Source of the DNA: an uncultured Brachymonas sp.
GTDB taxonomy: Bacteria > Pseudomonadota > Gammaproteobacteria > Burkholderiales > Burkholderiaceae_C
Reading direction: 5' to 3'
DNA: 64,000 nt
Assembly (NCBI GenBank): GCA_964618495.1
Contig: CAZUBE010000006.1
Span: 2,727 to 66,726 of the forward strand
The notes below the pieces were generated by a model. That model was not told the origin of the DNA, made no database searches, and was given only the letters and a program-made list of their open reading frames with translations. Of the stretch, positions 4,897 to 57,583 are shown one piece after another (within the stretch, counting starts at the first letter, position 1; every line of letters begins with the position of its first letter). Position numbers and translations under genes: made by a program.

Positions 4897-5058
4897 GGAA
4901 GCGCTGATTTATTGCAGTTTCGTATAAAAACGCAATCGCCCGTCATTCCCGCGTAGGCGGGAATCCACAGCTGCGCCAATATGCGGATGGATTCCCGCCT
5001 ACGCGGGAATGACGACTTTCTGATTTTTCTCTTGCATGAAGAATAAATCAACGCTTCC
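4897..5058 (+). mobile_element. MITE/REP-doublet element, copy A (complete)
   Basis: 17-bp TIRs GGAAGCGCTGATTTATT / AATAAATCAACGCTTCC, flanked by TTAA / CTAA. Internal inverted REP pair at 4941-4966 and 4989-5014 (CGTCATTCCCGCGTAGGCGGGAATCC). Confidence 0.88.
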
Positions 5059-5125
5059 CTAAACAGGCGCATTGATGCAGCATATCTGCATCATTCTTGC
5101 ACCTTGTTTGCGCCTTATGGCTACC

Positions 5126-5163
5126 AAAGTGGCATGCTCAAGAGCAGCATGCCACTTTTTTTT
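5126..5163 (+). terminator. Strong intrinsic terminator downstream of obgE
   Basis: 13-bp stem AAAGTGGCATGCT / AGCATGCCACTTT ending in a T8 run. Confidence 0.8.
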
Positions 5164-5217
5164 GTCATAGCATGCTTTCATCTGAAAAATCGCACTCTAT
5201 CAACAATAAATTTTGAT

Positions 5218-5773
5218 TTATGCACAGTGTTGATATCTTGCAGCAAAAGCATTTCAGACACTTTTCGAAGCTGTATCGGCATTTCAATATAGATCGCTAA
5301 CCCATTGATTATATTAATATTTCCATGATTACACAAATTTCGAAAGAGTTTCTAAGCCATTGATTTCAAAGCATTAGGATTCGCTCACTGTTTTTTTATT
5401 CACAAAGTTATGCACAGGCAGAAAAAACCTTTGTGCAAAGCGGGTTTAGCGTATCTTTCGCAAAAAAACTTCATAAATTAGCGGTAAAACGAATGCTTTT
5501 AAGTTAATTGGTACTCAATTTCGTGTCTTGTAGAGCAGATGCTGCGAGTAATTGGGTTCGCTTGAAAAAAACACTGCCATGCGTATACAAGACTCATGCC
5601 ATGACTCAACGGCATTGTCTGGCTATTGCCCCTGCATCAAGTACAAAAACAAGGTAAGTCATTGATTTTATTTGCTTTCACAAATCTGCCTCATTTATCG
5701 GCAGATTGTGCAAACCCTTGATTTTGCAGGCTTTAAAAACTTGTCAACGCAGTCATACACAAAGTTATCCACA
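5218..5773. promoter_or_regulatory. AT-rich non-coding cluster of IHF consensus sites and DnaA boxes
   Basis: Four co-oriented YAANNNNTTGATW matches (5298, 5353, 5655, 5711). DnaA boxes TTATGCACA (5218, 5408) and TTATCCACA (5765), plus one-mismatch TCATACACA (5753). Confidence 0.65.
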
Positions 5774-5824
5774 TGAATTGTGGCTAAAAATGCAAGTTGC
5801 TTTTTCAAGCCGCATGCTGCAAAT

Positions 5825-6493
5825 TCAGGGCGCTGTTTCGCTGGGCATGAGCCAGCGTTTCTGTGCGGCAAATACGGCATTGGGATACTGTGGCTGACCA
5901 CGTGAGCCGTTGTAGCGCCCCAGCGCCATGTACATATTGCCGTTTTCACGGTGCAGGTAGTGGCGCAAAATGCTGCAGCCAAAGCGCAGATTGGTTTGCA
6001 TGTGAAACAGCTTGCCCGCGTCGCCATCACCAATGACGCGCGCCCAAAATGGCATGACCTGCATCAGCCCGCGTGCGCCTGCGTAAGAAATAGCGTATTT
6101 GCGAAAGTTGCTCTCTACCTGTATGAGCCCAAGCACGAGCGATATTTCCAGCCCCGCGCGCGCGGCTTCGTACCAAACGGTTTGCAAAAACTCTTGCCTG
6201 CTGAGCTCATCTACCATGCGGTTGCCAATGCGCGCGCTCATGGTGGTGAGCCAATACTGGTATTCGCGCTGGCTTTTGGCATCGGTAAAGTGCGGTATGG
6301 GTGGCGCACTGTTGCTGATTGCTGCGCTCAGTGCGGTGCGCACCGAGTCCACCATATGCTCTTCTTTTTGTGCGCCCGCGTGGACGGGGCTGTGCAAGCT
6401 GCCCAATGCTGACCCCAGCAAGCCCATCAGGCTGCCAGAAGCTGCTACTCCACCTAAACTTTGCAATACATTGCGGCGACTGACAAAACGCAC
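5825..6493 (-). CDS. Lytic transglycosylase (SLT domain) with twin-arginine-like leader
   Basis: LIQVESNF, GARGLMQVMP, NLRFGC and ALGRYNGS motifs. N-terminal SRRNVL. Confidence 0.92.
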   Translation of the reverse strand: MRFVSRRNVLQSLGGVAASGSLMGLLGSALGSLHSPVHAGAQKEEHMVDSVRTALSAAISNSAPPIPHFTDAKSQREYQYWLTTMSARIGNRMVDELSRQEFLQTVWYEAARAGLEISLVLGLIQVESNFRKYAISYAGARGLMQVMPFWARVIGDGDAGKLFHMQTNLRFGCSILRHYLHRENGNMYMALGRYNGSRGQPQYPNAVFAAQKRWLMPSETAP

Positions 6494-6507
6494 GGCTACA
6501 ACCCTCC

Positions 6508-8253: not shown

Positions 8254-8388
8254 GGCAGTATCTGGGTAAGAATGAAGAAATCGTGCGCTGCACTTTGTAC
8301 AGGCAATAACAGGAATGTAGCCATATTTTCCTTGATATCGGCGCGTTGCCGTGCATAATGCACATAATTCAAGAATCTGGAGTTAATC

Positions 8389-9051
8389 ATGCTGGACCAA
8401 GAGGGCTTTCGCCCCAACGTCGGCATCATTTTGCTCAACCGTAAGAATCAGGTCTTCTGGGGCAAGCGTATCCGTACGCATAGCTGGCAGTTTCCACAAG
8501 GAGGCATAGACAGGGGCGAATCGCCTGAACAGGCTATGTTTCGCGAGCTGCACGAAGAAGTTGGTCTGCAACCGCACCATGTGCGCATTGTGGCCAGAAC
8601 CCGTGATTGGTTGCGCTATGAGGTGCCCGACCGCTACATTCGCCGCGACGCGCGCGGCCACTACAAAGGCCAAAAACAAATCTGGTACTTGCTGCAAATG
8701 CTGGGGCAAGACTGGGATTTGAACCTGCGCGCCACCAACCACCCCGAGTTTGACGCTTGGCGCTGGAACGACTACTGGGTGCCGCTAGACGTAGTCATCG
8801 AATTCAAACGCGGCGTGTACGAAATGGCGCTCACCGAGCTGGCGCGCTACGTGCCACGCCACGAATCGCGCAACCGCTACCTGCGCGCCAACCACAAAGG
8901 GCGCGAGCGCAACATGGAGCAAGAGCGCGAACCGTTTAGCCAACAGCTTTATGTGCCCAATGCCTTGCCACAAACGGCGCAGGCAGCTCCCCAGCTATTT
9001 GTGCCAGCAACGGCATTGCACTGCCCTTTGACTAAGGAAGAGCCCAAATGA
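8389..9051 (+). CDS. rppH: RNA pyrophosphohydrolase (Nudix) with C-terminal extension
   Basis: [24 protein letters not shown] and Nudix box RELHEEVG. Confidence 0.97.
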
Positions 9052-9581
9052 CATCTTTGCCAAACTGGCCGCGCCATGCTGTGCTTTGTCTGTCTAGCTG
9101 CTTGCTTGCAAGCGCAGCGCATGCACAACTGTTTTCAGACGCTGATACCCACTGGCGCGAAGGCGAAGTGCCCCAGCCCCCAGCCCTGAGCAGCAAAAAC
9201 ATGGTGCAGATCGACATGCCCTCTTACTCCGACTTGTTGGTAGGCGTGGATGTAGATAGCGTAAACGTTACCCCAAACGATGGCGTGGTGCGCTACGTTA
9301 CCGTGCTGCAAGGCGCTGATGGCTCGCTTTCGGCCTACTACCAAGGCGTGCATTGCGCCAACTACACGGGCCGCACTTACGCCCGCTACCGTTTTGATGC
9401 AAACCCGCCCGCATGGGAAAACATTGATGCCGAATGGCAAGAGTTGCGTGGAAGCAAAGCACGCTACGCCAATGCAGCCGCCCGTGCAGGCGCCTGCGAA
9501 AACTTTGTGCCCGCCAGCGACACCGCTACAGCCAAGCGCAACTACGCCAAAAACAGCAAGTGGACGGGCAAGCGGTTTTAA
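9048..9581 (+). CDS. CNP1-like family exported protein
   Basis: Signal peptide, W.E..VP.PP and DGVVRYV...G...YQGVHC pattern. ATGA-coupled to rppH, the usual Burkholderiales neighbour. Confidence 0.8.
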
Positions 9582-9583
9582 GC
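9495..9583 (+). repeat. 89-bp direct repeat, copy 1 (3' end of the CNP1-like gene)
   Basis: Identical to 10460-10548 at 88 of 89 positions (G9566 vs A10531). Confidence 0.97.
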
Positions 9584-9766
9584 TGCACCAACCTGAGACG
9601 CAGAGCCCCTGGCAATAAGTAGGAAAGAGTTCCAAACAGTCAGGATGCGCTACATATCAACTATACCAAATATGCCTAAAAGGTAATTTCAAGGCTTCCA
9701 TAGGGAGGCTTGAAAAATTTTAGTTACACACCAGAAAACACAAATTCAAACTATTTGGAGTTAAAC

Positions 9767-10430
9767 ATGAAAACATTTAACAATGAAAGATGTTATTATC
9801 TTGATACATTTAACTTATGGGAATGTCTAATTCGCCAAAAAAAGACAATAATCGCTGTATTTACTCTGGTGACAACAATCTCTATTATATATATTACAAG
9901 CCGCCCAACACTCTATCAAAGCCAAGCCAGCGTTATGATTGGAGAGCTGCTTTTTTTTTGAGACACAACCTATAGAAAGTCAAGAATCCATAAAATATCG
10001 CTACTCTACAGTTTTGGAAATAAGACCCATAAAAAATACACGCATTATAGAGGTCATATCCACATCAACAAACTCTGAAGAATCTAAGCATCAAGTAAAT
10101 AATACGATAGAAAAAATTATCAATGAACATGCGTCAATCTTTGATAAAAAAAGATCGGATTTTTTAAAATATGCCAATGAAATCTATAATAAAGACTTGG
10201 CCCCTAACAAAAAAAATATGCTCAACATGCTTGATTCGGCATCTTCTTCTAATGCAACACAGCAAATATCAGAAATAAGTACTACTGAATTTTATTATGG
10301 AGGAAATATTCGATCTAAACTCTCCATCGCCTTTGTATTAGGGCTTAGTCTTTCCCTTGTTTCTGCATTTTTAAAAGATTTTTTCGAAAGCAAAAAACTA
10401 TTTTCAAAAAATCAGTGTCGAATGGATTAA
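9767..10430 (+). pseudogene. Wzz/GumC-like polysaccharide chain-length-determinant gene, frameshifted at a T9 tract (pseudogene, phase-variable allele or sequencing error)
   Basis: RBS GGAG before ATG 9767. N-terminal TM followed by PTLYQSQASVMIG, and a C-terminal TM (IAFVLGLSLSLVSAFL). ORFs 9767-9961 and 9939-10430 fuse into 220 aa if T9 (9951-9959) is T8. About 30% GC in sampled lines. Confidence 0.7.
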
Positions 10431-10459
10431 ACTTTCAAGCCGTAACCCACGCATGTGCT

Positions 10460-10548
10460 TGCGAAAACTTTGTGCCCGCCAGCGACACCGCTACAGCCAA
10501 GCGCAACTACGCCAAAAACAGCAAGTGGACAGGCAAGCGGTTTTAAGC
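10460..10548 (+). repeat. 89-bp direct repeat, copy 2 (orphan duplicate of the CNP1-like 3' end)
   Basis: See copy 1. Runs directly into MITE copy B. Confidence 0.97.
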
Positions 10549-10707
10549 ACGCGCTGATTTGCGCCAGTTTCGTATAAGAACGCAATCGCTCGCCATTCAC
10601 GCGCAGGCGGGAATCTACAGCTATGCCCCTTATACGGATGGATTCCCGCCTGCGCGGGAATGACGGCTTTCTGAACTCTTTCTTGTAAAAAATAAATCGG
10701 CGTTTCT
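10547..10707 (+). mobile_element. MITE/REP-doublet element, copy B (complete, degenerate TIRs)
   Basis: Arms homologous to copy A; REPs at 10591-10616 and 10640-10665. TTAA on both sides (10543-46, 10708-11). Confidence 0.85.
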
Positions 10708-10756
10708 TTAAGAGGTTTTGTTTTTATTTTACGTTATATATACAACTGAGGGCTGT

Positions 10757-11518
10757 ATGGAAGTAATCTTATTAATAGTTGCTGCTTTTGTGGCCATCTT
10801 GGTTTTTGCCATTAATATTGATGACAAAAAACATAAAAGTGAAAAACAAAAAGTTGAAAAATTAACGCAAACAGTAGAACATATTGAGTCTATCATTCTC
10901 CCGCATGCCCGAACGCTTGCCATCAAATGGGATCAGCTGCCCTATAAAGATGATTACGGGAATTACATCTTTGATGATTGGGATAGAGAAGTCGAATATT
11001 TTATTACCAGTGTACTCCTGCAAGATGATGTGGCACGCCAGTTTTTAAATTCAGGGAATTTTGATGTTGATAACCAACGTCTTGCCACTGTAAGGGAAAT
11101 GGTGTCTGATATAGCTCACAAAGAAACTGAAAGAATGCTTGATGCAGCTTCAGATGAATATCTCGACGTTGATACTCTGACAGGCGAAGAATATGAGCGC
11201 TATTGCGCCTCTCTATTGAACAAACACGGATGGGATGCAAACCCCACAACGGCAACGGGCGATCAAGGCATAGACATTATCGGAAAAATAAATGGCATTA
11301 CTGCTGTTTTTCAATGCAAAAGATATTCGCAACCAGTTGGCAATGCCGCAGTGCAAGAAGTAATTGCTGGAAAAACTTTTGCACAAGCCCAATATGCAGC
11401 CGTTGTAAGCAACAGCACGTTTACAAAATCTGCCAGACAATTAGCCGATACAGCCAATGTATATTTACTGCACCATTCAGAACTTGAAGAATTTGCTGAA
11501 ATGATTTTGCCAAAATAA
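10757..11518 (+). CDS. Membrane-anchored Mrr-like (PD-(D/E)xK) restriction endonuclease domain protein
   Basis: GAGGG RBS. N-terminal hydrophobic helix (VILLIVAAFVAILVFAI). C-terminal EEYERYCASLL...GDQGIDII...FQCKRYSQPVGNAAVQEV...SNSTFTKSARQLA is the Mrr catalytic-domain pattern. AT-rich. Confidence 0.85.
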   Translation: MEVILLIVAAFVAILVFAINIDDKKHKSEKQKVEKLTQTVEHIESIILPHARTLAIKWDQLPYKDDYGNYIFDDWDREVEYFITSVLLQDDVARQFLNSGNFDVDNQRLATVREMVSDIAHKETERMLDAASDEYLDVDTLTGEEYERYCASLLNKHGWDANPTTATGDQGIDIIGKINGITAVFQCKRYSQPVGNAAVQEVIAGKTFAQAQYAAVVSNSTFTKSARQLADTANVYLLHHSELEEFAEMILPK

Positions 11519-11526
11519 TAATTTCG

Positions 11527-11665
11527 GGATGCGCTAACTTGTTTTTCATGCAAGAAAAAGCTCCGCACGTTGTCATTCCCGCGCAGGCGGGAATCTACTC
11601 GCATAAGGGGCGCAGCTGTGGATTCCCGCCTGCGCGGGAATGACGGTTTTCTGCATTCTTTCTTA
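11527..11665 (-). mobile_element. MITE/REP-doublet element, copy C (inverted, hybrid, one end truncated)
   Basis: Reverse-complement right arm at 11527-11570, REP doublet at about 11572-11644 with an inverted spacer, then a truncated forward right arm. Confidence 0.8.
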
Positions 11666-11797
11666 ACTGTGCGGATGTGCAAGTCACCCGCGCTATGTCT
11701 CCCACGCTACGCTTGCTGACCCAACTCACAGGCCTATGAACGATGCTGCAAGCTAGCTTCTTGCCAAGCCATACCCAAGCGGCACGCACCCCACCGA

Positions 11798-12484: not shown

Positions 12485-12545
12485 AGTTAAAACCCGTTTT
12501 ACCAAATCTTCGCCAGATGTTTACCAGATGTTTGCTCAATGGCTA

Positions 12546-13121: not shown

Positions 13122-13149
13122 CGTCATTTCCGCTTAGGCGGGAATGACG
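13122..13149. repeat. Collapsed single REP palindrome, copy D (remnant)
   Basis: CGTCATTTCCGCTTAGGCGGGAATGACG, with weak left-arm-like sequence upstream. Confidence 0.75.
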
Positions 13150-13294: not shown

Positions 13295-14173
13295 TTAGGC
13301 CAGTGCGCGTTTACGCAACTCCATCATGCGCCAGACAAAGGGCGTAAAGATGAGCTGCATGGCGAGCTCCATTTTGCCGCCGGGTACAACGATGGTGTTG
13401 GCACGGCTCATGTAGCTGTCATGAATCATCGAAAGCAGATAGGGGAAGTCGATGCCTTTGGGGTTGGCAAAGCGGATAACAACCATGCTTTCGTCAGCGC
13501 TGGGGATGTCTTTAGCGATGAAGGGGTTGGAAGTATCAACCACCGGCACGCGCTGGAAATTGACGTGCGTACGCGAGAATTGCGGGCAGATGACGTTTAC
13601 ATAGTCGGGCATGCGACGCAGAATGGTGTCGGTTACGGCTTCGCTGCTGTAGCCGCGCAGTTTTTGGTCGCGCCAGAGTTTTTGTATCCACTCAAGGTTG
13701 ATGACAGGTACTACACCAATCAGCAAATCGGGGTATTGGGCGATGTTGATTTCTGGCGTGACGACACCACCATGCAGGCCTTCGTAGAAGAGGATGTCGG
13801 TATCTGCAGGCAGGTCTTGCCACTCGGTAAAGGTGCCGGGCTCTTGCTTGTAGGGTGCGGCTTCGCCAGCGTCGTGCAGGTAGCGGCGCGCCCTGCCCTG
13901 CCCAGTTTCGGCGTAAGAGGCAAACAGGGCTTGCAATTCGTCAAGCAGGTTGTTGTCCAGACCAAAATGGCTGAAGTGTGCATTGCCCTGCTGCTCGGCC
14001 TGCGCCTGCATGACCTTCATTTCCTTGCGGTTGTAGCGGTGAAAGCTGTCGCCTTCGATATTGGCCGCTTTGACTCCTTCGCGATTAAAAATGCCCGCAA
14101 AGGTGCGCGTAACGGTAGTTGTGCCTGCACCAGAAGAACCTGTGATGGCAATGATGGGGTGACGTTCAGACAT
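13295..14173 (-). CDS. prk: Phosphoribulokinase (class I, proteobacterial)
   Basis: IIAITGSSGAGTTT, EGDSFHRY, FYEGLHG and DTILRRMPDYV. Confidence 0.98.
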   Translation of the reverse strand: MSERHPIIAITGSSGAGTTTVTRTFAGIFNREGVKAANIEGDSFHRYNRKEMKVMQAQAEQQGNAHFSHFGLDNNLLDELQALFASYAETGQGRARRYLHDAGEAAPYKQEPGTFTEWQDLPADTDILFYEGLHGGVVTPEINIAQYPDLLIGVVPVINLEWIQKLWRDQKLRGYSSEAVTDTILRRMPDYVNVICPQFSRTHVNFQRVPVVDTSNPFIAKDIPSADESMVVIRFANPKGIDFPYLLSMIHDSYMSRANTIVVPGGKMELAMQLIFTPFVWRMMELRKRALA

Positions 14174-14241
14174 GGTTCGGTGTCCTTATGGAATGGTTAA
14201 AAAAACGTGTAGCACCTGCCCCAAAAGCAGGTTGCTGTGTA

Positions 14242-15363
14242 TCAGTGCCTAAACAGGCCGCGCTGTGCAAACAGCGGGTTGTGCAGCTCACATTGCGATT
14301 TTTCAGTGTGGTAGCGCTCAATACGCTCCACTTCATTTTTTGAGCCAAACACCAGCCCGATGCGTTGATGCAGCGATTCGGGCTGCACTTGCAAAATAGG
14401 GCAACGGCCTGTAGAGGCACGGCCACCAGCCTGCTCGATGATGAAGCCGATCGGGTTGGCCTCGTAGAGCAGGCGCAGACGGCCGGGTTTGCAGGGGTCT
14501 TTGGTGTCGCGCGGGTACATGAATACGCCGCCACGCATCAAAATACGATGCGCTTCAGCCACCATGCTGGCAATCCACCGCATATTGAAGTCTTTGCCGC
14601 GTGTGCCGGTTTTGCCTGCCAGACATTCATCTACATAGCGTTTAACGGGCGCTTCCCAAAAGCGGGCATTGCTGGCGTTGATGGCAAATTCTTGTGTATC
14701 GGGCGGTATGACCATATTGGGGTGGGTGAGCATGAACTGGCTCAGGTTGGGGTCAAGTGTGAAGCCGACCACGCCACGCCCCACGCTTAAGACCAGCATG
14801 GTGGTGGGGCCATACAGGGCGTAGCCTGCAGCAACCTGCTCGCAGCCGGGCTGCAAAAAGTCGGCAGCTACTACGTCGCGGCCGCTGTCAATCACTTCTT
14901 GCGGGGCGCGCAGAACCGAGAAGATACTGCCTACGGTAACGTTTACGTCGATATTGCTGGAGCCATCAAGCGGATCAAATACCAGCAGGTATTTACCACG
15001 TACCTGTCCTTCTGGGATTTGGTAGGGGTGCTCCATTTCTTCAGATGCCATGCCTGCCAAATGACCGCCCCAGTCGTTCATTTGGGTGAAGTATTCGTTG
15101 CTGATGACATCAAGCTCTTTTTGCTCTTCGCCCTGTATATTGACACCCGTTTGCACACAGTCTATGCCAGCAGTGGCATCCATGCTATTGATGGGCTGCC
15201 CGGGCATGGCGCCCAGCTTGCCAAAGGCGACCGCACGCGAAATGGCTTTGCAGGCCAGAGCCACATCGTGCATCAAGGCGTTAAAGGTACCGCTGGCATG
15301 TGGAAAGTGCTTGCGGTTATCAATCAAGTATTGCGTAAAAGTAATGCGGCGGTGCAGTGGCAT
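14242..15363 (-). CDS. fbp: Fructose-1,6-bisphosphatase class 1 (CbbF type)
   Basis: [34 protein letters not shown] and [11 protein letters not shown]. Confidence 0.97.
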
Positions 15364-15448
15364 GGCGGGCTTTCTGGGACAAGGTTAAAAAACTTTGGCA
15401 GCTTGCAACAGAGCTGTAGATACGGGCGCAGGTACGCGGCAAACGGGC

Positions 15449-16150
15449 TTATGCCGCAGCAGGCGCGGCGGCTGCTTGGCGCAACGACTGCATGACGGAG
15501 CGGTAACCACCATCAGCATCGGGGGCGCCAAACACAGCACTGCCGGCAACAAAGGTATCTGCACCAGCGGCAGCTATTGCGCCGATATTGCTGACCTTGA
15601 CGCCGCCATCGACTTCCAGCCAGATGGGCTGACCACCATCGGCCATATAGGCATCAATGCGGCGGCGCGCCTCGCGCAGCTTGGGCAAAGCGCTGGGTAT
15701 GAACGATTGGCCACCAAAGCCCGGGTTGACGCTCATCAGCAGCACAATATCGAGCTTGTCCATGATGTGATCCATCCACTGCAAGGGGCTGGCAGGGGTG
15801 AGCACAATGCCTGCCTTGCAGCCGTGGTCGCGTATCAGTTGCAGTGTGCGGTCAACATGGCGGCTGGCTTCAGGGTGAAAGGTGATGATGTTGGCACCAG
15901 CCTTGGCAAACATGGGGATAAGGCTATCGACAGGCTCAACCATCAGGTGCACATCAATAGGAATTTGCACATGCGGACGGATGGCCTCACACACCAAGGG
16001 GCCGATGGTAAGGTTGGGCACGTAGTGGTTGTCCATCACATCAAAATGCACCAGATCACAACCAGCAGCTTCAATGGCACGCACTTCTTCGCCCAAGCGG
16101 GCAAAATCGGCAGAGAGGATAGAGGGTGCAAGGCGGACAGGTTGGTTCAT
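15449..16150 (-). CDS. rpe: Ribulose-phosphate 3-epimerase
   Basis: [40 protein letters not shown] and EVDGG. Confidence 0.98.
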
Positions 16151-16211
16151 GGTGAATAAAAGACAGACGAAAGTTAAAAAAGGCCAAAAACAATCAACGG
16201 CAACTATGGCA

Positions 16212-16946
16212 TCATGCTGCGGGCTCTGGCAAAGGCTCTGCCTCATGCCAAGCACGCAATTGCTCAAGCGTTACGCCAGCAAGACTGGGCAACACCCGCA
16301 AAGCGCCTGTAAAGTCATGCTTAACAGTAAAACGGTTGCAAGTCACTACCGTGTGCAAGCCTGCAGCCAGAGCAGATCTCAGGCCGTTGGCCGAATCTTC
16401 AAATGCCAAGCAGGCACTGGCAGGCAATTTAAGCTGTGCCAATGTTTGCAGGTAAACCTGCGGATGCGGTTTTTTGTGCGGCGCAGTACTGGCATCTTCA
16501 ATCACTGCAAAATTCTCCTGCCACGCTTCGCCCAAGGCATGGCGCAACAAAGCCACAATGTTGACAGGCGATGTGGTGGTAGCAATGGCCAGCGTCAAGC
16601 CGGCAGCACGTGCCTCTTGCAACAAATCAAGTGCGCCGATACGCAGTTTCACCTCGCCTTGCTGTACAGCCTGCTCGTAATACGCTGTTTTTATGGAGTG
16701 CAGTCGCAATACCGTATCTCGCACACCTGCGCCCAAATCAACCAAATCAGGCTGAATGCTTTTCCAGTAATGCAAGATACGCTCTTTGCCGCCTGATATT
16801 TCAAGCAGCTTGGTGTATTCAGTTTCGCTCCAGTGCCAGTCCAGACCTTCTTCGGCGAAGGCCTGATTGAAAGCGGCCAGATGCGCTGACTCAGTGTCTG
16901 CCAAGGTGCCGTCTACGTCAAAAATAAGTGCCTGTAACATGGACAT
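16212..16946 (-). CDS. cbbY: CbbY HAD-family phosphatase
   Basis: [27 protein letters not shown] and FEDS; located in the cbb cluster. Confidence 0.9.
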
Positions 16947-17088
16947 GGTATTGCTGAATAAGAAAAAAATTGTGATTTAAAACGTGGCGTGCATTGCTTA
17001 CCTACACGGTACCAACTGTAGTTGGGTAAAATCATCAAAACAAGTCATGTTTTCTATTTTATACATCAATAATTTCTGATACTTAATA

Positions 17089-18000
17089 GTGCGCAACTAC
17101 ACCTTAAAGCAAATTCAGACCTTTATTGAGGTAACCCGCCAAGGCTCTGTATCTAAAGCGGCCGAGAAACTGTGCGTAACGCAACCAGCCGTTTCCATGC
17201 ATATTCGCCAGCTTGAAGAGGCTTTTGGTGTAGCCCTGTTTGAAGCACAAGGCAGAGGTATCAGGCTCACCGATGCTGGGCGCACTTTTGCAGGACGCGC
17301 CATTACGGTAATGGCCGAGCTGCACGAACTCGAATCGCTGATGGCGGAATATGCCGGCGCAAAAAAAGGCCGTATCGCGCTAGCAGTTGTGAGCACAGCC
17401 AAGTATTTTGTTCCCATGCTGCTGGTACGCTTTGCACGCCTGTACCCGGATATTGACGTAGTGCTGCACATCGAAAACCGCGAAAGCGTACTGGGCTTGC
17501 TTGAGCGCAGCGAAGCCGATCTGGTCATCATGGGGCGTGCGCCGCGCAACATAACGACCGAGGCCGTAGCTTTTGCTACCAACCCCATGGGCATTATTGC
17601 GGCTCCCACCCATGCCCTGGCCACACGCAAAAACCTGCCATTTTCCGCAATGGCAGACTATGCTTTTGTCATGCGCGAATCGGGCTCGGGCACACGCGCC
17701 GCCATGGAGCGCCTGTTTGCCCAGCATGAAGTGCCGCTGAAAGTGGCTATGGAAATGCCCAGCAACGAAACCATCAAGCAAGCTGTGATGGCAGGCATGG
17801 GCTTGAGCTTTCTATCCATGCGCACGGTACGCCAAGAGCTGGCTGGCGGTCATCTGGTTCAGCTTGATATCAACGGCATGCCTATCATTGGCCAATGGTT
17901 TGTTACCCATATGGCAAGTAAAACGCTTTCGCCTGCTGCGCGTGCATTCAAGGCCTTTCTTATCGAGCAAGGTGGCGCATTGATGGACTCGTTTATATAA
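17089..18000 (+). CDS. cbbR: LysR-type Calvin-cycle regulator CbbR
   Basis: GTG start, LysR HTH (SKAAEKLCVTQPAVS), STAKYFVP, RESGSGTR and SNETIKQAVMAGMG. Confidence 0.93.
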   Translation: MRNYTLKQIQTFIEVTRQGSVSKAAEKLCVTQPAVSMHIRQLEEAFGVALFEAQGRGIRLTDAGRTFAGRAITVMAELHELESLMAEYAGAKKGRIALAVVSTAKYFVPMLLVRFARLYPDIDVVLHIENRESVLGLLERSEADLVIMGRAPRNITTEAVAFATNPMGIIAAPTHALATRKNLPFSAMADYAFVMRESGSGTRAAMERLFAQHEVPLKVAMEMPSNETIKQAVMAGMGLSFLSMRTVRQELAGGHLVQLDINGMPIIGQWFVTHMASKTLSPAARAFKAFLIEQGGALMDSFI

Positions 18001-18001
18001 A

Positions 18002-18041
18002 TAAAAAGTGATGATTTGCGCTGCAGAATAAATTTATCTGA
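18002..18041 (+). promoter_or_regulatory. Putative CbbR (LysR T-N11-A) boxes upstream of cbbM
   Basis: TAA-N7-TGA at 18002-18014 and again at 18029-18041. Confidence 0.5.
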
Positions 18042-18110
18042 TAGGTAAGACTGGTTACAGTAGCGGCAGATTCACTCACCCCCCAACCATGCAGACAAAG
18101 GAGATACTCC

Positions 18111-19490
18111 ATGGATCAATCCCAACGCTACGCCGACCTGAGCCTGAAAGAAGCAGACCTGATCGCAGGTGGCCGCCATATTCTGTGTGCCTACAAAATG
18201 AAACCCAAAAGCGGCAGCTATCTGGAAGCAGCAGCCCACTTTGCGGCTGAATCATCCACTGGCACCAACGTAGAAGTCTCCACCACCGACGACTTCACCA
18301 AAGGCGTAGATGCGCTGGTTTACTACATTGACGAAGCCAGCGAAGACATGCGCATTGCCTACCCGCTAGACTTGTTTGACCGCAACATGATTGATGGCCG
18401 CATGATGCTGGCCAGCTTCCTGACGCTGACCATTGGCAACAACCAAGGCATGGGCGATATCGAGCACGCCAAGATGATTGATTTCTACATGCCTCGCCGC
18501 GCCATTGAGCTATTTGACGGCCCCGCCAAAGACATTTCTGACTTGTGGCGCATTCTGGGTCGCCCCGTGAAAGACGGCGGCTACATCAGCGGCACCATCA
18601 TCAAGCCCAAGCTGGGCTTGCGCCCCGAGCCGTTTGCCAAGGCGGCTTATGAATTTTGGCTGGGTGGCGACTTCATCAAAAACGACGAACCACAAGGCAA
18701 CCAGGTTTTTGCCCCCATGAAAAAAACCATCCCGCTGGTAGCCGATGCCATGAAGCGCGCCATGGATGAAACTGGCGAAGCCAAGCTTTTTTCTGCCAAT
18801 ATCACCGCCGACGACCACTACGAAATGCTGGCACGCGGCGAATTTATTCTCGAAGCCTTTGGCGCAGATGCCGACAAAGTGGCATTTCTGGTTGATGGCT
18901 ACGTAGGCGGCCCAGGCATGATTACCACTGCGCGGCGCAACTTCCCCAACCAATACCTGCACTACCACCGCGCAGGCCACGGCGCTGTAACCAGCCCCAG
19001 CAGCAAGCGCGGCTACACCGCCTATGTACTGGCCAAAATGAGCCGTCTGCAAGGGGCAAGCGGCATCCACGTCGGCACTATGGGCTACGGCAAGATGGAA
19101 GGCGAGAAAGACGACCGCGCCATTGCCTACATCATCGAGCGCGACAGCTACACCGGCCCCATCTACCACCAAGAATGGTACGGCATGAAGCCCACCACCC
19201 CCATCATCAGCGGCGGCATGAATGCACTGCGCCTGCCCGGTTTCTTCCAGAATCTGGGGCATGGCAACGTGATTAACACCGCTGGCGGCGGCAGCTACGG
19301 CCACATCGACAGCCCCGCAGCAGGCGCACGCTCACTACGCCAAGCCTACGAATGCTGGAAAGCAGGCGCAGACCCCATCGCATGGGCCAAACAGCACCGC
19401 GAATTTGCCCGCGCCTTTGCCAGCTTCCCCGCTGATGCCGACAAGCTCTACCCCGGCTGGCGCGAGCAACTGGGCGCTGCAGCGCAATAA
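18111..19490 (+). CDS. cbbM: RuBisCO form II large subunit
   Basis: [10 protein letters not shown] start, [20 protein letters not shown] (carbamylated Lys motif), HYHRAGHG and SGGMN; 459 aa; no small-subunit gene. Confidence 0.98.
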
Positions 19491-19531
19491 ACGCCGCGAA
19501 AACCGCTCAAGCCGCTAAAACCAAAAGCTTA

Positions 19532-19695
19532 GAAGGCGCTGGTTTATTCCAGCTTCAGATAAAAATGCCATAGCCCGTCATTCCCGCGCAGGCGGGAATC
19601 CACGGCTGCGCTTCTTATTGCAATGGATTCCCGCCTGCGCGGGAATGACAACATGCTGCGTTTTTCTCTTGCATGAAAAACAAATCAGCGCCTCC
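19532..19695 (+). mobile_element. MITE/REP-doublet element, copy E (complete, second arm subtype)
   Basis: GAAGGCGCTGGTTTATT ... AACAAATCAGCGCCTCC followed by CTAA. REPs at 19576-19601 and 19625-19650. Confidence 0.88.
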
Positions 19696-19722
19696 CTAAA
19701 AAGCCAAGGCGCAATGACAAAT

Positions 19723-19947: not shown

Positions 19948-22236
19948 TTGAAATTTCGCTTCCCCATAGTCATCATCGACGAAGATTACCGCACCGAAAA
20001 CACCTCGGGCTTTGGCATACGCGCCTTGGCAGAAGCCATAAAAGAAGAAGGCTTCGAGGTGCTTGGCGTAACCAGCTATGGCGACTTGAGCCAGTTTGCC
20101 CAGCAGCAAAGCCGCGCCAGCGCGTTTATCTTGGCGATTGATGACGACGAATTCAGCCCAGGCCCCGAGATGGACCCAGCCGTGCTCAACCTGAGCACCT
20201 TCATCGAAGAAGTGCGCCGCAAAAACCCCGATGTGCCCATCTACATCTACGGCGAAACCAAAACCAGCCAGCACTTGCCCAACGACATTTTGCGCGAGCT
20301 GCACGGCTTTATCCACATGTTCGAGGACACGCCCGAATTTGTGGCGCGTCACATCATCCGCGAGGCAAAAACCTACCTTGAAGGCATACAGCCGCCGTTT
20401 TTCAAAGCCCTGCTCGATTACGCCGAAGACGGCTCATACTCATGGCACTGCCCCGGGCACTCGGGCGGCGTGGCGTTCCTCAAAAGCCCCATCGGGCAGA
20501 TGTACCACCAGTTTTACGGCGAAAACATGCTCCGCGCCGACGTGTGCAATGCCGTAGAAGAACTCGGCCAGTTGCTTGACCACAACGGCGCTATTGGCGA
20601 AAGCGAGCGCAACGCCGCCCGCATATTCAATTCAGACCACTGCTTTTTCGTCACCAACGGCACCAGCACCAGCAACAAAATCGTGTGGCACCACACCGTA
20701 GCCCCTGGCGACGTGGTGGTGGTAGACCGCAACTGCCACAAATCCATCCTGCACAGCATCATCATGACGGGTGCAATTCCCGTATTTTTAAAACCCACGC
20801 GCAACCACTACGGCATCATCGGCCCCATACCCAAAAGCGAATTTGAGCCAGCCAAAATCCGCGCAAAAATCCGTGCCAACCCGCTGCTCAAAGGCGTAGA
20901 CGCTCAAACCATCAAGCCGCGCGTGCTCACGCTCACGCAATCCACCTACGACGGCGTGCTCTACAACACCGAAACCATCAAAAAAATGCTCGACGGCTAC
21001 GTTGAAAACCTGCATTTTGACGAAGCATGGCTGCCGCACGCAGCCTTTCACCCGTTCTACGGCACGTTTCACGCCATGGGCAGAAAGCGCCCACGGCCTA
21101 AAAAATCGGTGGTCTACTCCACCCAATCCATCCACAAGCTGCTCGCGGGCATCAGCCAAGCCAGCCATGTGCTGGTGCAAAACTCGCAAACCACCAAGCT
21201 CGACCGCCACCTGTTTAACGAGTCTTACCTCATGCACACCAGCACCAGCCCACAATACAGCATCATTGCCAGTTGCGACGTGGCCGCTGCCATGATGGAG
21301 CCACCCGCAGGCACATCGCTGGTTGAAGAAAGCATTGCCGAAGCGCTCGATTTTCGCCGCGCCATGCGCAAAGTAGATGACGACTTTGGCAAAGACGACT
21401 GGTGGTTTCAAGTCTGGGGCCCAGACAAACTCGCCGAAGACGGCCTAGGCCGTGCCGAAGACTGGATTTTGAAAGTAGGCTCCAGCCGCAGCGCCAACTG
21501 GCACGGCTTTGGCAACCTGGCAGCGGGCTTTAACATGCTCGACCCCATCAAATCCACCATCGTCACCCCCGGGCTGAATATGGACGGGCGCTTTGCCAAA
21601 ACGGGCATACCCGCCAGCATCGTGAGCAAATACCTCACTGAAAACGGCGTAGTCGTTGAAAAAACTGGCCTCTACAGCTTCTTCATCATGTTTACCATCG
21701 GCATCACCAAAGGCCGCTGGAACACACTCGTCACCGCCCTGCAGCAGTTTAAAGACGACTACGACAAAAACCAGCCCCTGCGCCGCATCATGCCCGAATT
21801 TTGCGAGCAAATGTCGCGCCGCCCGGGTGGCAACCGCTACGAAGGCATGGGCTTGCGCGATATGTGCCAAATGGTGCACCAAATGTACGCCCGCCACGAC
21901 ATAGCACGGCTCACCACCGAAATGTACCTAAGCGACCTCACCCCCGCCATGCGCCCCGCAGACGCTTACGCAGCCATCGCCCGCCGCGAAACCGAGCGCG
22001 TACCCATCGACCAGCTCGAAGGCCGCATCACCACCAGCCTAGTCACGCCCTACCCGCCAGGCATACCGCTGCTCATCCCAGGCGAAGTCTTCAACAAAAA
22101 AATCGTGGACTACCTTAAATTCTCGCGCAACCTCTCCAAAGAATGCCCGGGCTTTGAAACCGACATCCACGGTTTGGTTGAAGAAGTTGATAGCGACGGC
22201 AAAGTATCGTACTTTGCCGATTGCGTAAAAGAATAA
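19948..22236 (+). CDS. Arginine/lysine/ornithine decarboxylase (fold type I, wing domain)
   Basis: TTG start MKFRFPIVIIDED, WHCPGHSGG, VTNGTSTSN, DRNCHKS, HFDEAW and PLP motif TQSIHK. Substrate cannot be assigned from sequence. Confidence 0.95.
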   Translation: MKFRFPIVIIDEDYRTENTSGFGIRALAEAIKEEGFEVLGVTSYGDLSQFAQQQSRASAFILAIDDDEFSPGPEMDPAVLNLSTFIEEVRRKNPDVPIYIYGETKTSQHLPNDILRELHGFIHMFEDTPEFVARHIIREAKTYLEGIQPPFFKALLDYAEDGSYSWHCPGHSGGVAFLKSPIGQMYHQFYGENMLRADVCNAVEELGQLLDHNGAIGESERNAARIFNSDHCFFVTNGTSTSNKIVWHHTVAPGDVVVVDRNCHKSILHSIIMTGAIPVFLKPTRNHYGIIGPIPKSEFEPAKIRAKIRANPLLKGVDAQTIKPRVLTLTQSTYDGVLYNTETIKKMLDGYVENLHFDEAWLPHAAFHPFYGTFHAMGRKRPRPKKSVVYSTQSIHKLLAGISQASHVLVQNSQTTKLDRHLFNESYLMHTSTSPQYSIIASCDVAAAMMEPPAGTSLVEESIAEALDFRRAMRKVDDDFGKDDWWFQVWGPDKLAEDGLGRAEDWILKVGSSRSANWHGFGNLAAGFNMLDPIKSTIVTPGLNMDGRFAKTGIPASIVSKYLTENGVVVEKTGLYSFFIMFTIGITKGRWNTLVTALQQFKDDYDKNQPLRRIMPEFCEQMSRRPGGNRYEGMGLRDMCQMVHQMYARHDIARLTTEMYLSDLTPAMRPADAYAAIARRETERVPIDQLEGRITTSLVTPYPPGIPLLIPGEVFNKKIVDYLKFSRNLSKECPGFETDIHGLVEEVDSDGKVSYFADCVKE

Positions 22237-22380
22237 ACAACGCACTTCCCCAAAAAGCCATGTTTTGCTTATACTGAGAAAAATCTGATAGCCGTGTTTA
22301 TGCGGCTTGTAGGGAACAATCTGGCTGCAAGGCTCATAAACACTGGTTCTCGGCTTCAACAAGCGCAGTGTAGGTGTTGA

Positions 22381-22476
22381 GGAAACACTGATTTATTCTT
22401 CAAGCAAGAAAAATATCAGAAAGCCGTCATTCCCGCGAAGGCGGGAATCCAGAATTGCGCCTGAGCGGGAGTGACG
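22381..22476 (-). mobile_element. MITE/REP element, copy F (inverted, partial)
   Basis: GGAAACACTGATTTATT plus reverse-complement right arm, a REP at 22425-22450, then a partial second REP. Confidence 0.8.
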
Positions 22477-22615
22477 AATGGGGCGTGTGCTTAAGCCCAA
22501 GTTCAAATCCCACCCCTTTTTCTGGTATTTTTTCTGTGTCCTCTGCGCAACTTCTGCGCCCTCTGCGTCCCGCCCCCGTATTTACCCCCGCCAACACCGC
22601 CCACCTGCCCCAACC

Positions 22616-23269: not shown

Positions 23270-23367
23270 CATTCCCGCGCAGAGCCACGCCATGCACGAA
23301 AGCATGGGGCGAGAATCTATGTGTGCAAGTGGCACTGTTGTAGATTCCCGCCCGCGCGGTAATGGCG
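23270..23367. repeat. Degenerate REP doublet, copy G
   Basis: CATTCCCGCGCAG-[hairpin insert]-GCGAGAATCTA ... TAGATTCCCGCCCGCGCGGTAATGGCG. Confidence 0.65.
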
Positions 23368-46222: not shown

Positions 46223-46224
46223 TC

Positions 46225-49486: not shown

Positions 49487-49713
49487 GCTAACTTGAATAA
49501 GGGCTTGCTTGGACATGACTTTTTTGCTCTGAAAGAAAAGCGCACCAGTCTAACAAACAATAAAAAACAGAAGTTTTTTGCCAAAGCCGCCCATTTTTTA
49601 GCTCTTCGCATGCCATATGCTGCTATCTTTGGTTCTGCTCCTGTTTGCAGCTCTTGTTTACAGCCCTTGCATTGGCAGCGCCACCCACCACCACTTTGCC
49701 CCCAAAAAACCCG

Positions 49714-52012: not shown

Positions 52013-52099
52013 CGCCATGCCCATACATAGCCCCTTGACAACACCTTGCATCAGCAGCGTAGCTTGCCCTCCCGCCAGCTATTGCGTGCGCCAATTGCC

Positions 52100-54496: not shown

Positions 54497-54580
54497 CGCT
54501 TTTTCTATACGTTACAAAAACAGTTTTTACCTGTATCATTCAGACTAAAGACTTATGTCAGCGAAAGGCAACGCACAGCA

Positions 54581-55273
54581 ATGGCAAACATTCTGGTAGT
54601 GGATGACGAACACGGTATTCGAGACCTCCTCTCCGAAATACTCAATGATGAAGGTCACTCGGTTGATTTGGCCGAAAATGCAGCACAGGCTCGGCAGGCA
54701 CGTCTGCAAAACAGCTACGATCTGGTACTGCTTGATATCTGGATGCCAGATACCGACGGTGTTACCCTGCTCAAAGAGTGGGCAACCAACGGTCTGCTTA
54801 CTATGCCCGTAGTCATGATGAGTGGACATGCCACCATTGAAACAGCTGTTGAAGCCACAAAAATCGGTGCCCTTTCCTTCCTTGAAAAACCCATTACGAT
54901 GAACAAGCTGCTCAAGGCTGTTGAGCTTGGGCTTGCACGCGATCAAGCGCAACGGCCCGCACAAACCAACAATAGCAGCACGTCAGTAACACCAACCACA
55001 TCCACGCCTGCAACACCTGCCACCACCTCAGAGCCTGCCCCAGTTGCTGGCGCTATAGCACCTACGCAACTGGCAGCCATCCAGAGTTTTGAACTTGACA
55101 AGCCTCTACGCGAAGCACGAGATACATTTGAACGCGCCTACTTCAATTTTCACCTGCAGCGCGAAAACGGCTCCATGACCCGTGTTGCGATAAAAACAGG
55201 GCTTGAACGTACCCACTTGTATCGAAAACTCAAACAGCTTGATATGCCTTTTGGCCGTGAAAGAAAAAGCTAG
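54581..55273 (+). CDS. ntrX: NtrX-like response regulator (receiver + Fis-type HTH, no AAA+ domain)
   Basis: ILVVDDE, LDIWMPD, MSGH, EKP and LREAR..FER...TGLERTHLYRKLK. Confidence 0.88.
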   Translation: MANILVVDDEHGIRDLLSEILNDEGHSVDLAENAAQARQARLQNSYDLVLLDIWMPDTDGVTLLKEWATNGLLTMPVVMMSGHATIETAVEATKIGALSFLEKPITMNKLLKAVELGLARDQAQRPAQTNNSSTSVTPTTSTPATPATTSEPAPVAGAIAPTQLAAIQSFELDKPLREARDTFERAYFNFHLQRENGSMTRVAIKTGLERTHLYRKLKQLDMPFGRERKS

Positions 55274-55308
55274 GCAGCCTTTTACCGAGCCGATTTGCAT
55301 ATCCCCCT

Positions 55309-57468
55309 GTGACAATCACTCCATTGATGCCTGCATCCGTTACTGCTGCCAGCACAGACACTAGCAGCATCGTTCTCAACGTACTGGTTGCTCTTCCCGC
55401 ACATATTGCATTGGCAGCAGCGCCATTGCACTATTTGTACGCAACACCTCTGTTGCCTGGTACTCTAGTACGCGTTCCGCTGGGAAAGCGTCAAGTTCTG
55501 GGCATCGTCTGGGATGCATCTACCCAAATAGACAGTACAGCACCAGACAGCAGCGCGCTCAAGCATGTTAGCGAAGCCTTCAATGATCTGCCTGCACTCA
55601 ATGCAGCATGGCGCCAACTTGTAACTTTTACAGCCCGCTATTACCAGCGCAGCATGGGCGAAGTGGCTTTAGCAGCCCTACCGCCACAACTACGGGAACT
55701 CGATAGCAAACAGCTTGCCAGAAGAATGAAAACTCTAGCAAAAAGCAACACCATCCTTCCCTGCCCTGACCCCACTACGCCAGCCAAACCCACGCTAACA
55801 GCACAGCAACAACTGGCTGTCAAAGCCACATTGCCTTCGTCACAAAGCCAAACTCCACCAGCACCTATTCTGCTTTTTGGTAGCACAGGCAGCGGGAAAA
55901 CCGAAGTGTATCTGCATGCTGTTGAGCAGCTATTGCAGCAAGACACTCATGCGCAAGCACTGGTCATGGTGCCTGAAATCAATCTCACACCACAACTCGA
56001 ACAACGATTTGCCAGCCGTTTTCCCGGCCTGTACCTTGCCACTCTGCACAGCGGCATGACGGCAGCACAGCGCCTGCAAAGCTGGCTGGCCGCACATACT
56101 GGCAAAGCACGCATTGTGTTGGGCACGCGCATGGCTATTCTGGCTTCCATCCCGCATCTTCGTCTTGTCATCGTCGACGAAGAGCATGACCCAAGCTACA
56201 AGCAACAAGAAGGCGCACGCTATTCGGCACGCGATTTAGCCATTTATCGTGGGCACCACAGCTGCGCGCAGGTACTTTTAGGCTCGGCCACTCCTTCACT
56301 GGAAAGCTGGTACAACAGCCGTCCTCCTGCTCCAGATGATGATGGTGGCCGATACATCCGGCTTGAAATGCCCCAACGCATTGGCAACGCACCACCAGCC
56401 GCTGTGCACCTGATAAACATGGCACAGCAACCGCGCAACACCGTACTAAGCCCGCACCTGCTCCAAGCAATCACCGCCCGCGCTGCCCGAGGCGAACAAA
56501 GCCTGCTACTCCTGAATCGCCGTGGCTACGCCCCCATCCTGCACTGCAAAGAATGCGGCTGGAAAAGCGAGTGCCCCCACTGTAGCGCCTACCGCGTCTT
56601 TCACAAAAGCGACCGCAGCCTGCGCTGCCACCATTGCGCCTACACCGAGCGCGTACCACGCACCTGTCCTGGCTGCGGCAATCAAGACCTGCTCACACTG
56701 GGCATGGGCACTGAGCAACTAGAAGAGGCTCTGGCACAACAACTACAACAAATACAGCGCCCTGATGGCCAGCCACTAAACATCATTCGCATTGATGCCG
56801 ACACCACCCGCCGCGCAGGCAGTTTGGTCGCGCAACTCACACGCGTACACAGCGGCGAAGTCGATGTTCTTGTTGGCACACAAATGGTCGCCAAAGGGCA
56901 TGACTTTCGACGAGTCACACTCGTGGCTGCGCTCAACCCTGACACGTCTCTCTTTAGCAGCGACTTCCGTGCCCCCGAACGGTTATTTTCGTTGTTGATG
57001 CAGGCAGGTGGCCGCGCTGGACGCGATGCAGCGATCAACACACGCAGCGAGTTGTGGATACAAACACACTTTCCCACCCACCCGCTATTTGCAGCACTGC
57101 AACAGCACGACTACCCGGCTTTTGCACAGCAGCAGCTTCAAGAGCGCCAGATGGCTGCCATGCCACCATTCAGCTTTCAGGCACTCATTCGTGCAGAAAG
57201 CCGCGAACAACAGACTGCACAAGACTTTCTCAACGCCACCAGCCTCGCTGCACAACACTTGCCAGATGCCACTTGCGTCACCTGTTACCCAGCTGTGCCC
57301 ATGTCGCCCCAACGCATAGCCAATCGCGAACGGGCCCAGATGCTGGTTGAGAGCAGCAGCCGATCTGCCTTGCAACGATTCCTGCATGGCTGCACATCCG
57401 TCTTGCATCAACAAAGCAAACGCAACATTCTGCGCTGGATGATTGATGTAGATCCACAGGAAATCTGA
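55309..57468 (+). CDS. priA: Primosomal protein N' (helicase); start could be 55327
   Basis: GSTGSGKTEVY, DEEHD, four CxxC motifs and GTQMVAKGHDF. Confidence 0.97.
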   Translation: MTITPLMPASVTAASTDTSSIVLNVLVALPAHIALAAAPLHYLYATPLLPGTLVRVPLGKRQVLGIVWDASTQIDSTAPDSSALKHVSEAFNDLPALNAAWRQLVTFTARYYQRSMGEVALAALPPQLRELDSKQLARRMKTLAKSNTILPCPDPTTPAKPTLTAQQQLAVKATLPSSQSQTPPAPILLFGSTGSGKTEVYLHAVEQLLQQDTHAQALVMVPEINLTPQLEQRFASRFPGLYLATLHSGMTAAQRLQSWLAAHTGKARIVLGTRMAILASIPHLRLVIVDEEHDPSYKQQEGARYSARDLAIYRGHHSCAQVLLGSATPSLESWYNSRPPAPDDDGGRYIRLEMPQRIGNAPPAAVHLINMAQQPRNTVLSPHLLQAITARAARGEQSLLLLNRRGYAPILHCKECGWKSECPHCSAYRVFHKSDRSLRCHHCAYTERVPRTCPGCGNQDLLTLGMGTEQLEEALAQQLQQIQRPDGQPLNIIRIDADTTRRAGSLVAQLTRVHSGEVDVLVGTQMVAKGHDFRRVTLVAALNPDTSLFSSDFRAPERLFSLLMQAGGRAGRDAAINTRSELWIQTHFPTHPLFAALQQHDYPAFAQQQLQERQMAAMPPFSFQALIRAESREQQTAQDFLNATSLAAQHLPDATCVTCYPAVPMSPQRIANRERAQMLVESSSRSALQRFLHGCTSVLHQQSKRNILRWMIDVDPQEI

Positions 57469-57583
57469 GAAGGCGCTGATTTATTCCAGTTTTGGATAAA
57501 AATGCCATAGCTCGTCATTCCCGCACAGGCGGGAATGACAACATGCTGGGTTTTTCTTGCATGAAGAATAAATCAGTGCCTCC
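57469..57583 (+). mobile_element. MITE/REP element, copy H (both TIRs, REP doublet collapsed to one palindrome)
   Basis: GAAGGCGCTGATTTATT begins right after the priA TGA. Single CGTCATTCCCGCACAGGCGGGAATGACA. Ends AATAAATCAGTGCCTCC followed by CTAA. Confidence 0.88.

Follow-up and report, generated by a model that had tools for sequence, protein, structure and literature searches.

What kind of element is a unit of about 160 bp that recurs, complete or in pieces, along a 64 kb stretch of the genome of an uncultured Brachymonas sp., and how could it have spread there? The stretch (the window, to which all position numbers refer) is part of contig CAZUBE010000006.1, and the genes it contains are of the housekeeping kind (obg, proS, a Calvin-cycle cluster, the dcw cluster, priA and gyrA). 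The original prediction described the unit as a doublet of repetitive extragenic palindromic (REP) sequences captured between terminal inverted repeats (TIRs) resembling those of an insertion sequence (IS). In our analysis, the best explanation, with a probability of about 0.8, is that the unit is a miniature inverted-repeat transposable element (MITE) with the ends of an ISBmu2-type IS5 element and a core formed by a CGTC-1 REP doublet, moved by an IS5-type transposase.

Eight copies or remnants (here A to H) had been listed, and direct reading of the window sequence found all of them where they had been placed. The REP core ATTCCC-N8-GGGAAT, allowing at most one mismatch, has 12 matches in the window versus 0.06 expected from shuffles, and the 17-bp end, GGARGCGCTGATTTATT, allowing up to three mismatches, has 8 versus 0.24 expected; a wider scan of the 64 kb found no copies beyond the eight loci. 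Four elements are complete (A, 4897-5058; B, 10547-10707; E, 19532-19695; and H, 57469-57583). They are 115-164 bp long and non-coding, and they are present in multiple copies at unrelated loci, namely after obg, a CNP1-like gene, cbbM and priA, respectively. Their alignment bears out the two proposed arm subtypes, A/B and E/H, with 91% likeness between E and H, 82% between A and B, and 71-83% for the remaining pairs. Both the alignment and the predicted RNA fold indicate that each arm is a diverged inverted repeat of the other, which makes the complete unit a single long, imperfect palindrome. C and F are reversed in orientation and retain only the right half (REP, right arm and TIR), while D and G are REP-only loci, lacking arms and TIRs.

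The ends of the unit are the first indication of its origin. The TIR, GGAAGCGCTGATTTATT, is identical at 16 of 17 positions to the end of the 1210-bp ISBmu2 of Burkholderia multivorans plasmid pBMUL01, and the exact 17-mer (17/17) is found at the end of an IS5-family element on plasmid 2 of Aromatoleum EbN1. These autonomous relatives were reached with a 50-nt TIR-TIR query against annotated plasmids. In pBMUL01 (strain ATCC 17616), GGAAACGCTGATTTATT and GGAAACGCTGATCAATG delimit the 1210-bp element, which is flanked by CTAG at either end and carries the annotation of an IS5-like ISBmu2 family transposase. Its 330-aa protein matches NCBIfam NF033581 (IS5 family) with 359 bits and shares 54% identity with the IS5 and ISKpn26 transposases. 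A Ralstonia relative has the same end. ISBmu2 and ISBmu23 have been described as 1210-bp elements that have inverted repeats of 16 bp and prefer CTAA (PMC3091744). The window unit has in common with these members of the IS5 group of the IS5 family the terminal repeat GGAAACGCTGATTTATT, of 16-17 bp, and a 4-bp duplication with CTAA/CTAG preference. By contrast, it is only 115-164 bp long, codes for nothing and has an interior unrelated to that of the IS. In addition, both of its ends are of the type that adjoins the transposase start codon in ISBmu2-type ISs, whereas the other ISBmu2 inverted repeat reads ...GATCAATG.

The same ends are widespread. A TIR scan with one genome per species, in which many matches were due to chance, also gave many short elements with an inverted TIR at both ends, in Thiobacillus, Halothiobacillus, Gallionella, Sulfuricella, Nitrosomonas, Pseudomonas, spirochaetes and others. 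Among 40 TIR pairs from unrelated genomes of many phyla, 24 had identical 4-bp flanks (CTAA in 8, TTAG in 7, TTAA in 3, CTAG in 2, and TTTG, CAAG, GAAG and ATAG in one each), 20 of these 24 being of the YTAR type (CTAA, TTAG, TTAA or CTAG). Consequently, a 4-bp target site duplication (TSD) with YTAR preference can be read from the flanks. Within the window, the only exact duplication is, as had been claimed, that of copy B (TTAA/TTAA), and the flank pairs of A, E and H each have a single mismatch in their four bases. Outside the window, composites of this lineage with exact duplications are found at the fetched loci L329 and L003 (TTAA/TTAA in both) and L342 (TTAG/TTAG), and that of L001 is one base off. 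The IS5-type ends and YTAR target of the original prediction are therefore borne out by the 16-17/17 end match, by the CTAG-flanked ISs and by the 4-bp duplications. The window copies had also suggested duplication of a TA dinucleotide, as in IS630- or Correia-like elements; this was dropped because relatives carry non-palindromic 4-bp direct flanks (CTAA, CTTA, ATAG, GAAG and TTTG). No parent IS was found beside the TIRs in 120 genome loci, where the matches were chance occurrences or MITEs, and a literature search for the TIR string found it in no paper.

Some of the short elements deserve separate mention. Termite-gut type spirochaete metagenome-assembled genomes (MAGs; L101, L109, L151, L188 and L194) and Dialister (L184) contain minimal TIR-TIR elements of 42-44 bp, which consist almost exclusively of two ISBmu2-type TIRs and in some cases are nested with longer relatives or arranged in tandem with them; the TIR family therefore extends well beyond Proteobacteria. 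A plasmid of P. amygdali pv. aesculi (L218, 1505-1605) carries a MITE of 101 bp that is bounded by the same TIR (GGAGGCGCTGATTTATT), shows the duplication CTAA/CTAA and is distinct from MITEPsy1; a type III effector gene of the XopAH/AvrB family is located about 100 bp away. MITEPsy1, an IS5/ISPsy2-derived element of P. syringae of about 100 bp whose transposition has been shown (PMC3189936), is also an IS5-type MITE; its TIRs, of 17-18 bp, start with GGAAG, and it duplicates 4 nt at CTAG or YTAA. As a named equivalent of the window unit it was ruled out by its different TIR, GGAAGGTCTGAAAAAGCC, and it also lacks a REP core.

These ends also bear on the idea that the 160-bp palindrome is in its entirety a long REPIN, mobilised by a tyrosine transposase of the RAYT or TIRYT type, the likeness of its ends to an IS5 inverted repeat being a coincidence. 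The unit is indeed a long hairpin with REP-like subunits, and tyrosine transposases flanked by TIRs do exist. However, such a coincidence would have to cover the 16-17/17 identity to ISBmu2-type inverted repeats, the occurrence of the same ends around unrelated interiors or none (the 42-bp TIR-TIR units included), and regular 4-bp duplications, which are the signature of a DDE transposase. Moreover, CGTC REPs have been reported to lack an association with genes for tyrosine transposases (PMC3733652), and no Y1 transposase was found in the window. We consider this explanation extremely improbable.

What, then, is the core? Each REP has the form CGTC ATTCCCGC GYAG GCGGGAAT CCA. The CGTC-1 class has been defined by a CGTC tag, an 8-bp stem beginning with AT, a 4-nt loop and a CCA tail; it has been equated with dRS3 of Neisseria and occurs mostly as inverted dimers downstream of genes (PMC3733652, Di Nocera et al. 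2013; for the definition of dRS3, see PMC1797815). The window REPs fit these features, including a CCA-like tail, and the proposed assignment to the CGTC-1/dRS3 class is thus borne out by tag, stem, loop and tail. The link with Neisseria is one of REP class only; the host belongs to the Comamonadaceae. Two REPs and a spacer of 20-27 nt, which belongs to one homologous family, form a single hairpin. Such doublets are present in A, B, C and E, and at site D in contig L237, and they are likewise inverted dimers located downstream of genes. The predicted RNA folds are very stable, with -87.3 kcal/mol (z -11.6) for copy A, -90.5 kcal/mol (z -10.0) for copy E and -56 kcal/mol (z -8.5) for copy H; no Rfam family reached its gathering score in a scan of the window.

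The core also occurs free of TIRs. At site D, the closely related strain contig L237 directly displays a perfect doublet of the same spacer family with no arms, the window has a singlet, and a Brachymonas MAG (L007) has a decayed doublet. A metagenome scan whose query comprised REP1 and the start of the spacer, and which was thus free of selection for arms, recovered about 12 distinct loci, four with TIR arms and eight solo. The core is also unstable, in ways that can be predicted: it has collapsed from doublet to singlet in D, H and L342, and its spacer is inverted relative to the arms in L001, the same flipped spacer being present in C. In addition, some REPs carry in their loop a GC-rich, hairpin-like insertion of about 20-25 nt (e.g., CATTCCCGCGCAG-AGCC...GGGGCG-AGAATC), found at window positions 23270-23320, in L003 at about 2930-2980, in L330 and in L127 (5349-5486). 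It resembles a REP partly duplicated within itself and is seen in different lineages.

The general organization of two inverted REPs separated by a short spacer, forming one hairpin and leaving singlets as decay products, is also that of the REPIN-RAYT system (Bertels and Rainey 2011). Here, by contrast, the tag is CGTC instead of GTAG, no RAYT is present in the window, and the unit carries TSDs and is bounded by DDE-type TIRs. The dRS3-class core might also suggest that the loci are recombination modules similar to the NIMEs of Neisseria. Copy C is a mosaic and shows the same flipped spacer as L001, in which the spacer is inverted relative to the arms, and copies B and C bracket a low-GC cassette with an Mrr gene that is swapped for another cassette in a different strain, so that dRS3-class palindromes, a mosaic copy and an association with variable gene cassettes are common to both. 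NIMEs, which have been reported to be specific to Neisseria, consist of RS units of 50-150 bp flanked by pairs of dRS3, often in arrays. In the window, the REP pairs enclose only the 20-27-nt spacer, no arrays of dRS3-separated RS units are found, no recombinase gene lies near the loci, and the outer ends are the inverted repeats of a known IS, flanked by 4-bp YTAR duplications. An origin as NIME-like modules is consequently very unlikely.

A more serious question is whether ends and core travel together. The doublet could be an independently mobile, REPIN-like unit that inserts repeatedly into the centre of an IS5-type MITE or palindrome, the composite thus arising many times. Solo doublets of the same spacer family do exist, the REP stem enclosed by the same TIR varies from lineage to lineage (ATTCCCGC, GTTCCCGC, ATCCCCGC, ATGCCCGC, ATTCCGGC and ACCCCGGC), and the dimers of Halothiobacillus neapolitanus have been described as inserted within palindromes (PMC3733652). 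Against this, all 71 matches of the arm motifs across the fetched loci adjoin a REP; neither the window nor the loci from the MAG and the metagenomes contained a REP-less version, nor has one been found in H. neapolitanus (PMC3733652). Furthermore, the junctions between REPs and arms are identical in all copies and both subtypes, the composites have their own target duplications at the outer TIRs, and no mobiliser of CGTC REPs is known (PMC3733652). Repeated independent insertion is therefore, in our opinion, a rather unlikely explanation, though the least unlikely of the alternatives. Transposition of the composite as a unit, as originally proposed, is supported by TSD-bearing copies directly observed at unrelated loci in the window, the related MAG and metagenomes, together with the constant junctions and the lack of REP-less arms. 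The further suggestion of the original prediction, that the unit may be addressed by two mobilisers (a DDE transposase at the TIRs and a REP-associated nuclease or recombinase at the core), finds no support: the window has no RAYT, IS110 or IS5 transposase gene, and the literature links no transposase to CGTC REPs (PMC3733652).

Some observations weigh against the IS5-type MITE explanation. A tblastn search of the window and about 250 kb of related contigs found no cognate IS5 transposase, and Pfam scans of the window open reading frames (ORFs) found no gene for a RAYT (Y1 transposase), an IS110-type or an IS5 transposase. Of the four complete copies in the window, all but B are flanked by imperfect duplications. 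Among the strain contigs, no clean pair of filled and empty sites was recovered, the site of copy E in the MAG is a run of N, and a scan with obg did not bring up the MAG. Finally, the RNA may have a role in stability or termination, which is suggested by position and folding only.

The distribution of the family and the state of its copies are also informative. The Orn/Lys/Arg decarboxylase locus is 88-98% identical in nucleotide sequence to that of the Brachymonas sp. MAG JAGONG01, and contigs from wastewater and sludge metagenomes are 99.9-100% identical to the window; an origin from Neisseria was rejected on these grounds. In about 159 other species of Comamonadaceae (some 2.7 Mb), there are no TIRs and 5 REP-like matches, versus 8 and 12 in the 64 kb of the window; within the Comamonadaceae, TIR and REP co-occur in this lineage only, to which the family is thus restricted. 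The composite pattern had no match in viral contigs. Every near-identical strain contig that extends to site A, C, E or H has a copy there, and many contigs break off within the REP. Being 72-91% alike, flanked in three of the four complete cases by imperfect TSDs, and fixed, the copies are old within the lineage, and the family looks currently inactive in this genome.

All TIR-bearing copies start 0-145 nt past stop codons. Copy A starts 22 nt past the obg stop, C 9 nt past the stop of an Mrr-family gene, E 42 nt past that of cbbM (form II RuBisCO) and F 145 nt past that of the Orn/Lys/Arg decarboxylase gene. H lies directly after priA, the stop of which is inside the left flank CTGA, and the left TTAA of B includes the TAA that corresponds to the stop of the CNP1-like gene. 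Since the YTAR target contains TAA or TAG, insertion at such positions is a consequence of the target preference, and it leaves the gene intact. Copy A has the obg stop on one side and, at 5126-5158, a terminator-like hairpin with a T-run on the other. A hairpin and T-run were also seen by eye after E and H, neither of which was listed by the terminator scan. With terminator-like hairpins downstream of A, E and H, the elements would sit in 3′ untranslated regions (UTRs).

Taken as a process, these data are consistent with the following model. An IS5-family DDE transposase supplied in trans would bind both TIRs and insert the whole unit at YTAR sites, duplicating 4 bp. Such insertions would often fall on or just after stop codons, leaving the gene unbroken and the element in its 3′ UTR, where a very stable hairpin may be tolerated or even bring a mild benefit, as a 3′ end or stabiliser of the RNA. 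Once the element is in place, its core would be altered through recombination between the REP arms or through slippage, giving the doublet-to-singlet collapse of D, H and L342, the spacer inversion of L001 and C, and the loop insertions of G.

The individual copies differ in their state of preservation. Copy A, of subtype 1 and on the forward strand (4893-5062 including flanks), has, in this order, the flank TTAA (4893-4896), the left TIR (4897-4913), the left arm (4914-4940), REP1 (4941-4967), the spacer, REP2 (4988-5014), the right arm (5015-5041), the right TIR (5042-5058) and the flank CTAA (5059-5062). Copy B, also complete, of subtype 1 and on the forward strand (10543-10711 with flanks), has mutated TIRs (10547-10563 and 10691-10707), REPs at 10591-10617 and 10639-10665, and its exact target duplication at 10543-10546 and 10708-10711. 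Copy E, complete, of subtype 2 and on the same strand (19528-19699 including the flanks CTTA on the left and CTAA on the right), has TIRs at 19532-19548 and 19679-19695 and REPs at 19576-19602 and 19624-19650. Copy H, forward and of subtype 2 (57465-57587 with flanks), has its core collapsed to one REP (57513-57539), between a left TIR (57469-57485) preceded by CTGA (57465-57468) and a right TIR (57567-57583) followed by CTAA (57584-57587).

The remaining loci are incomplete. Copy C (11527-11672, reverse strand) begins with a degenerate TIR (11527-11543) and a subtype-2 right arm, continues with a REP doublet (11571-11597 and 11619-11645), the spacer of which is inverted relative to the forward-strand reading of A, B and E, and has on its far side a truncated R1-like arm that lacks a TIR. 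Copy F (22381-22476, reverse strand) is a right-half remnant with a TIR (22381-22397), an R1-type arm, a REP (22425-22451) and a degenerate second REP extending to 22476, and it lacks the left arm and the second TIR. D (13122-13149) is a solo REP singlet and G (23270-23367) a degenerate solo REP doublet, both devoid of TIRs and arms and given no strand. The loop of the first REP of G bears the hairpin-like insertion, the same variant being present in L003, L330 and L127.

Several of these loci adjoin variable sequence. The low-GC segment between copies B and C holds a gene for an Mrr_cat restriction endonuclease (10718-11518). In L222, the whole B-Mrr-C segment (10546-11790) is replaced by a low-GC cassette of 906 bp with a 210-aa ORF, the left breakpoint lying at most one base from the outer end of B; this is a cassette replacement, not a clean empty site. 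The region between the CNP1-like gene and radC looks like a hot spot for variable cassettes. A 103-nt direct repeat of the 3′ end of the CNP1-like gene, 94% identical (9481-9583 and 10446-10548), brackets an 867-bp insert (9584-10450) with a GC content of 33-39% and a 163-aa ORF that has no Pfam match, and in the strain contigs L221 and L228 this insert is missing and the CNP1-like gene is joined directly to copy B. Upstream of position 653 (window 1-652), contigs that are otherwise 99.8-99.9% identical diverge completely, which suggests a strain-variable island; the diverged ends carry AAA_25, SSB-like and HicB genes in L087 (1-2416) and a HicB gene in L088 (1-81). Synteny with the Brachymonas MAG stops right after the decarboxylase gene, at remnant F (22236-22600 versus L007 10640-11100), where short CTGCG/CGCAG-rich repeats are present in both and where the two genomes have in common a GTCTCCCACGC-like motif that is also found near window position 11700. 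Finally, the Calvin-cycle cluster (13295-19490) comprises genes for phosphoribulokinase, FBPase, ribulose-phosphate epimerase, a HAD phosphatase, a LysR regulator and form II RuBisCO, which suggests that this Brachymonas-like organism has the capacity for CO2 fixation.

How new is this architecture? The original prediction had regarded it as undescribed. Both components belong to catalogued families, and a nesting of this kind was noted in 2013 in H. neapolitanus, where CGTC-1 dimers lie within 41-bp palindromes starting with GGGAAGC and no empty palindromes were found (PMC3733652). According to the published description, the likeness lies in a CGTC-1 dimer nested in a longer palindrome. The outer sequence, GGGaaGCTT-GAAAaACC, is different from that of the window unit, was not recognised as an IS5-type MITE, and has no reported target duplication. 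A search for this palindrome in the fetched Halothiobacillus loci gave nothing convincing. The architecture also recurs in other Betaproteobacteria, as TIRs lie directly against a CGTC-1 doublet in Gallionellales, Gallionella, Sulfuricella, Hydrogenophilales/Hydrogenophilaceae and unclassified Proteobacteria MAGs; in T. denitrificans (L108), the TIR is found next to a CGTC-tagged hairpin of a related kind. The REP stems differ between these lineages and complementarity is kept. The same TIR-doublet design is thus recurrent and not unique to the window. Compared with the CGTC-1 family in general, the window copies stand out in that most of them are enclosed by IS5-type arms and TIRs and in that their host belongs to the Comamonadaceae. 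The claim of novelty must consequently be narrowed: this is a combination of two known things, uncommon, not unprecedented. To our knowledge, the nested architecture has been neither named nor analysed as an IS5-type MITE with a REP.

This recurrence raises the possibility, which we regard as speculative and improbable on present data, that ISBmu2-type IS5 MITEs are a general vehicle for orphan CGTC-1 REP dimers. The joint presence of TIR and REP in this lineage alone among the Comamonadaceae would fit an import of the REP family on the MITE, with solo doublets released later. In a weaker extension of this idea, the source of the REP may be the GC-rich hairpin located after an inverted repeat of this type in full-length ISs. 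In the Aromatoleum IS5 element, for instance, the inverted repeat is directly followed by CGTC and a hairpin. The candidate identification of the REP as the IS's own subterminal hairpin was set aside, the likeness to the REP being too weak to claim.

For the window itself, the consequences are modest: its copies, which are old, fixed and probably no longer mobile, account mainly for breaks in the assembly and for local rearrangement. For the REP family, they are of more general interest. CGTC REPs, including dRS3 of Neisseria, are abundant in many bacteria, and no enzyme that spreads them is known. A CGTC-1 doublet within the ends of a well-characterised and experimentally mobile IS5-type element provides a concrete and testable spreading route, in which an ordinary DDE transposase could bring REP hairpins to new sites and genomes, and an element that targets YTAR can settle on stop codons and populate 3′ UTRs while leaving the genes unharmed.

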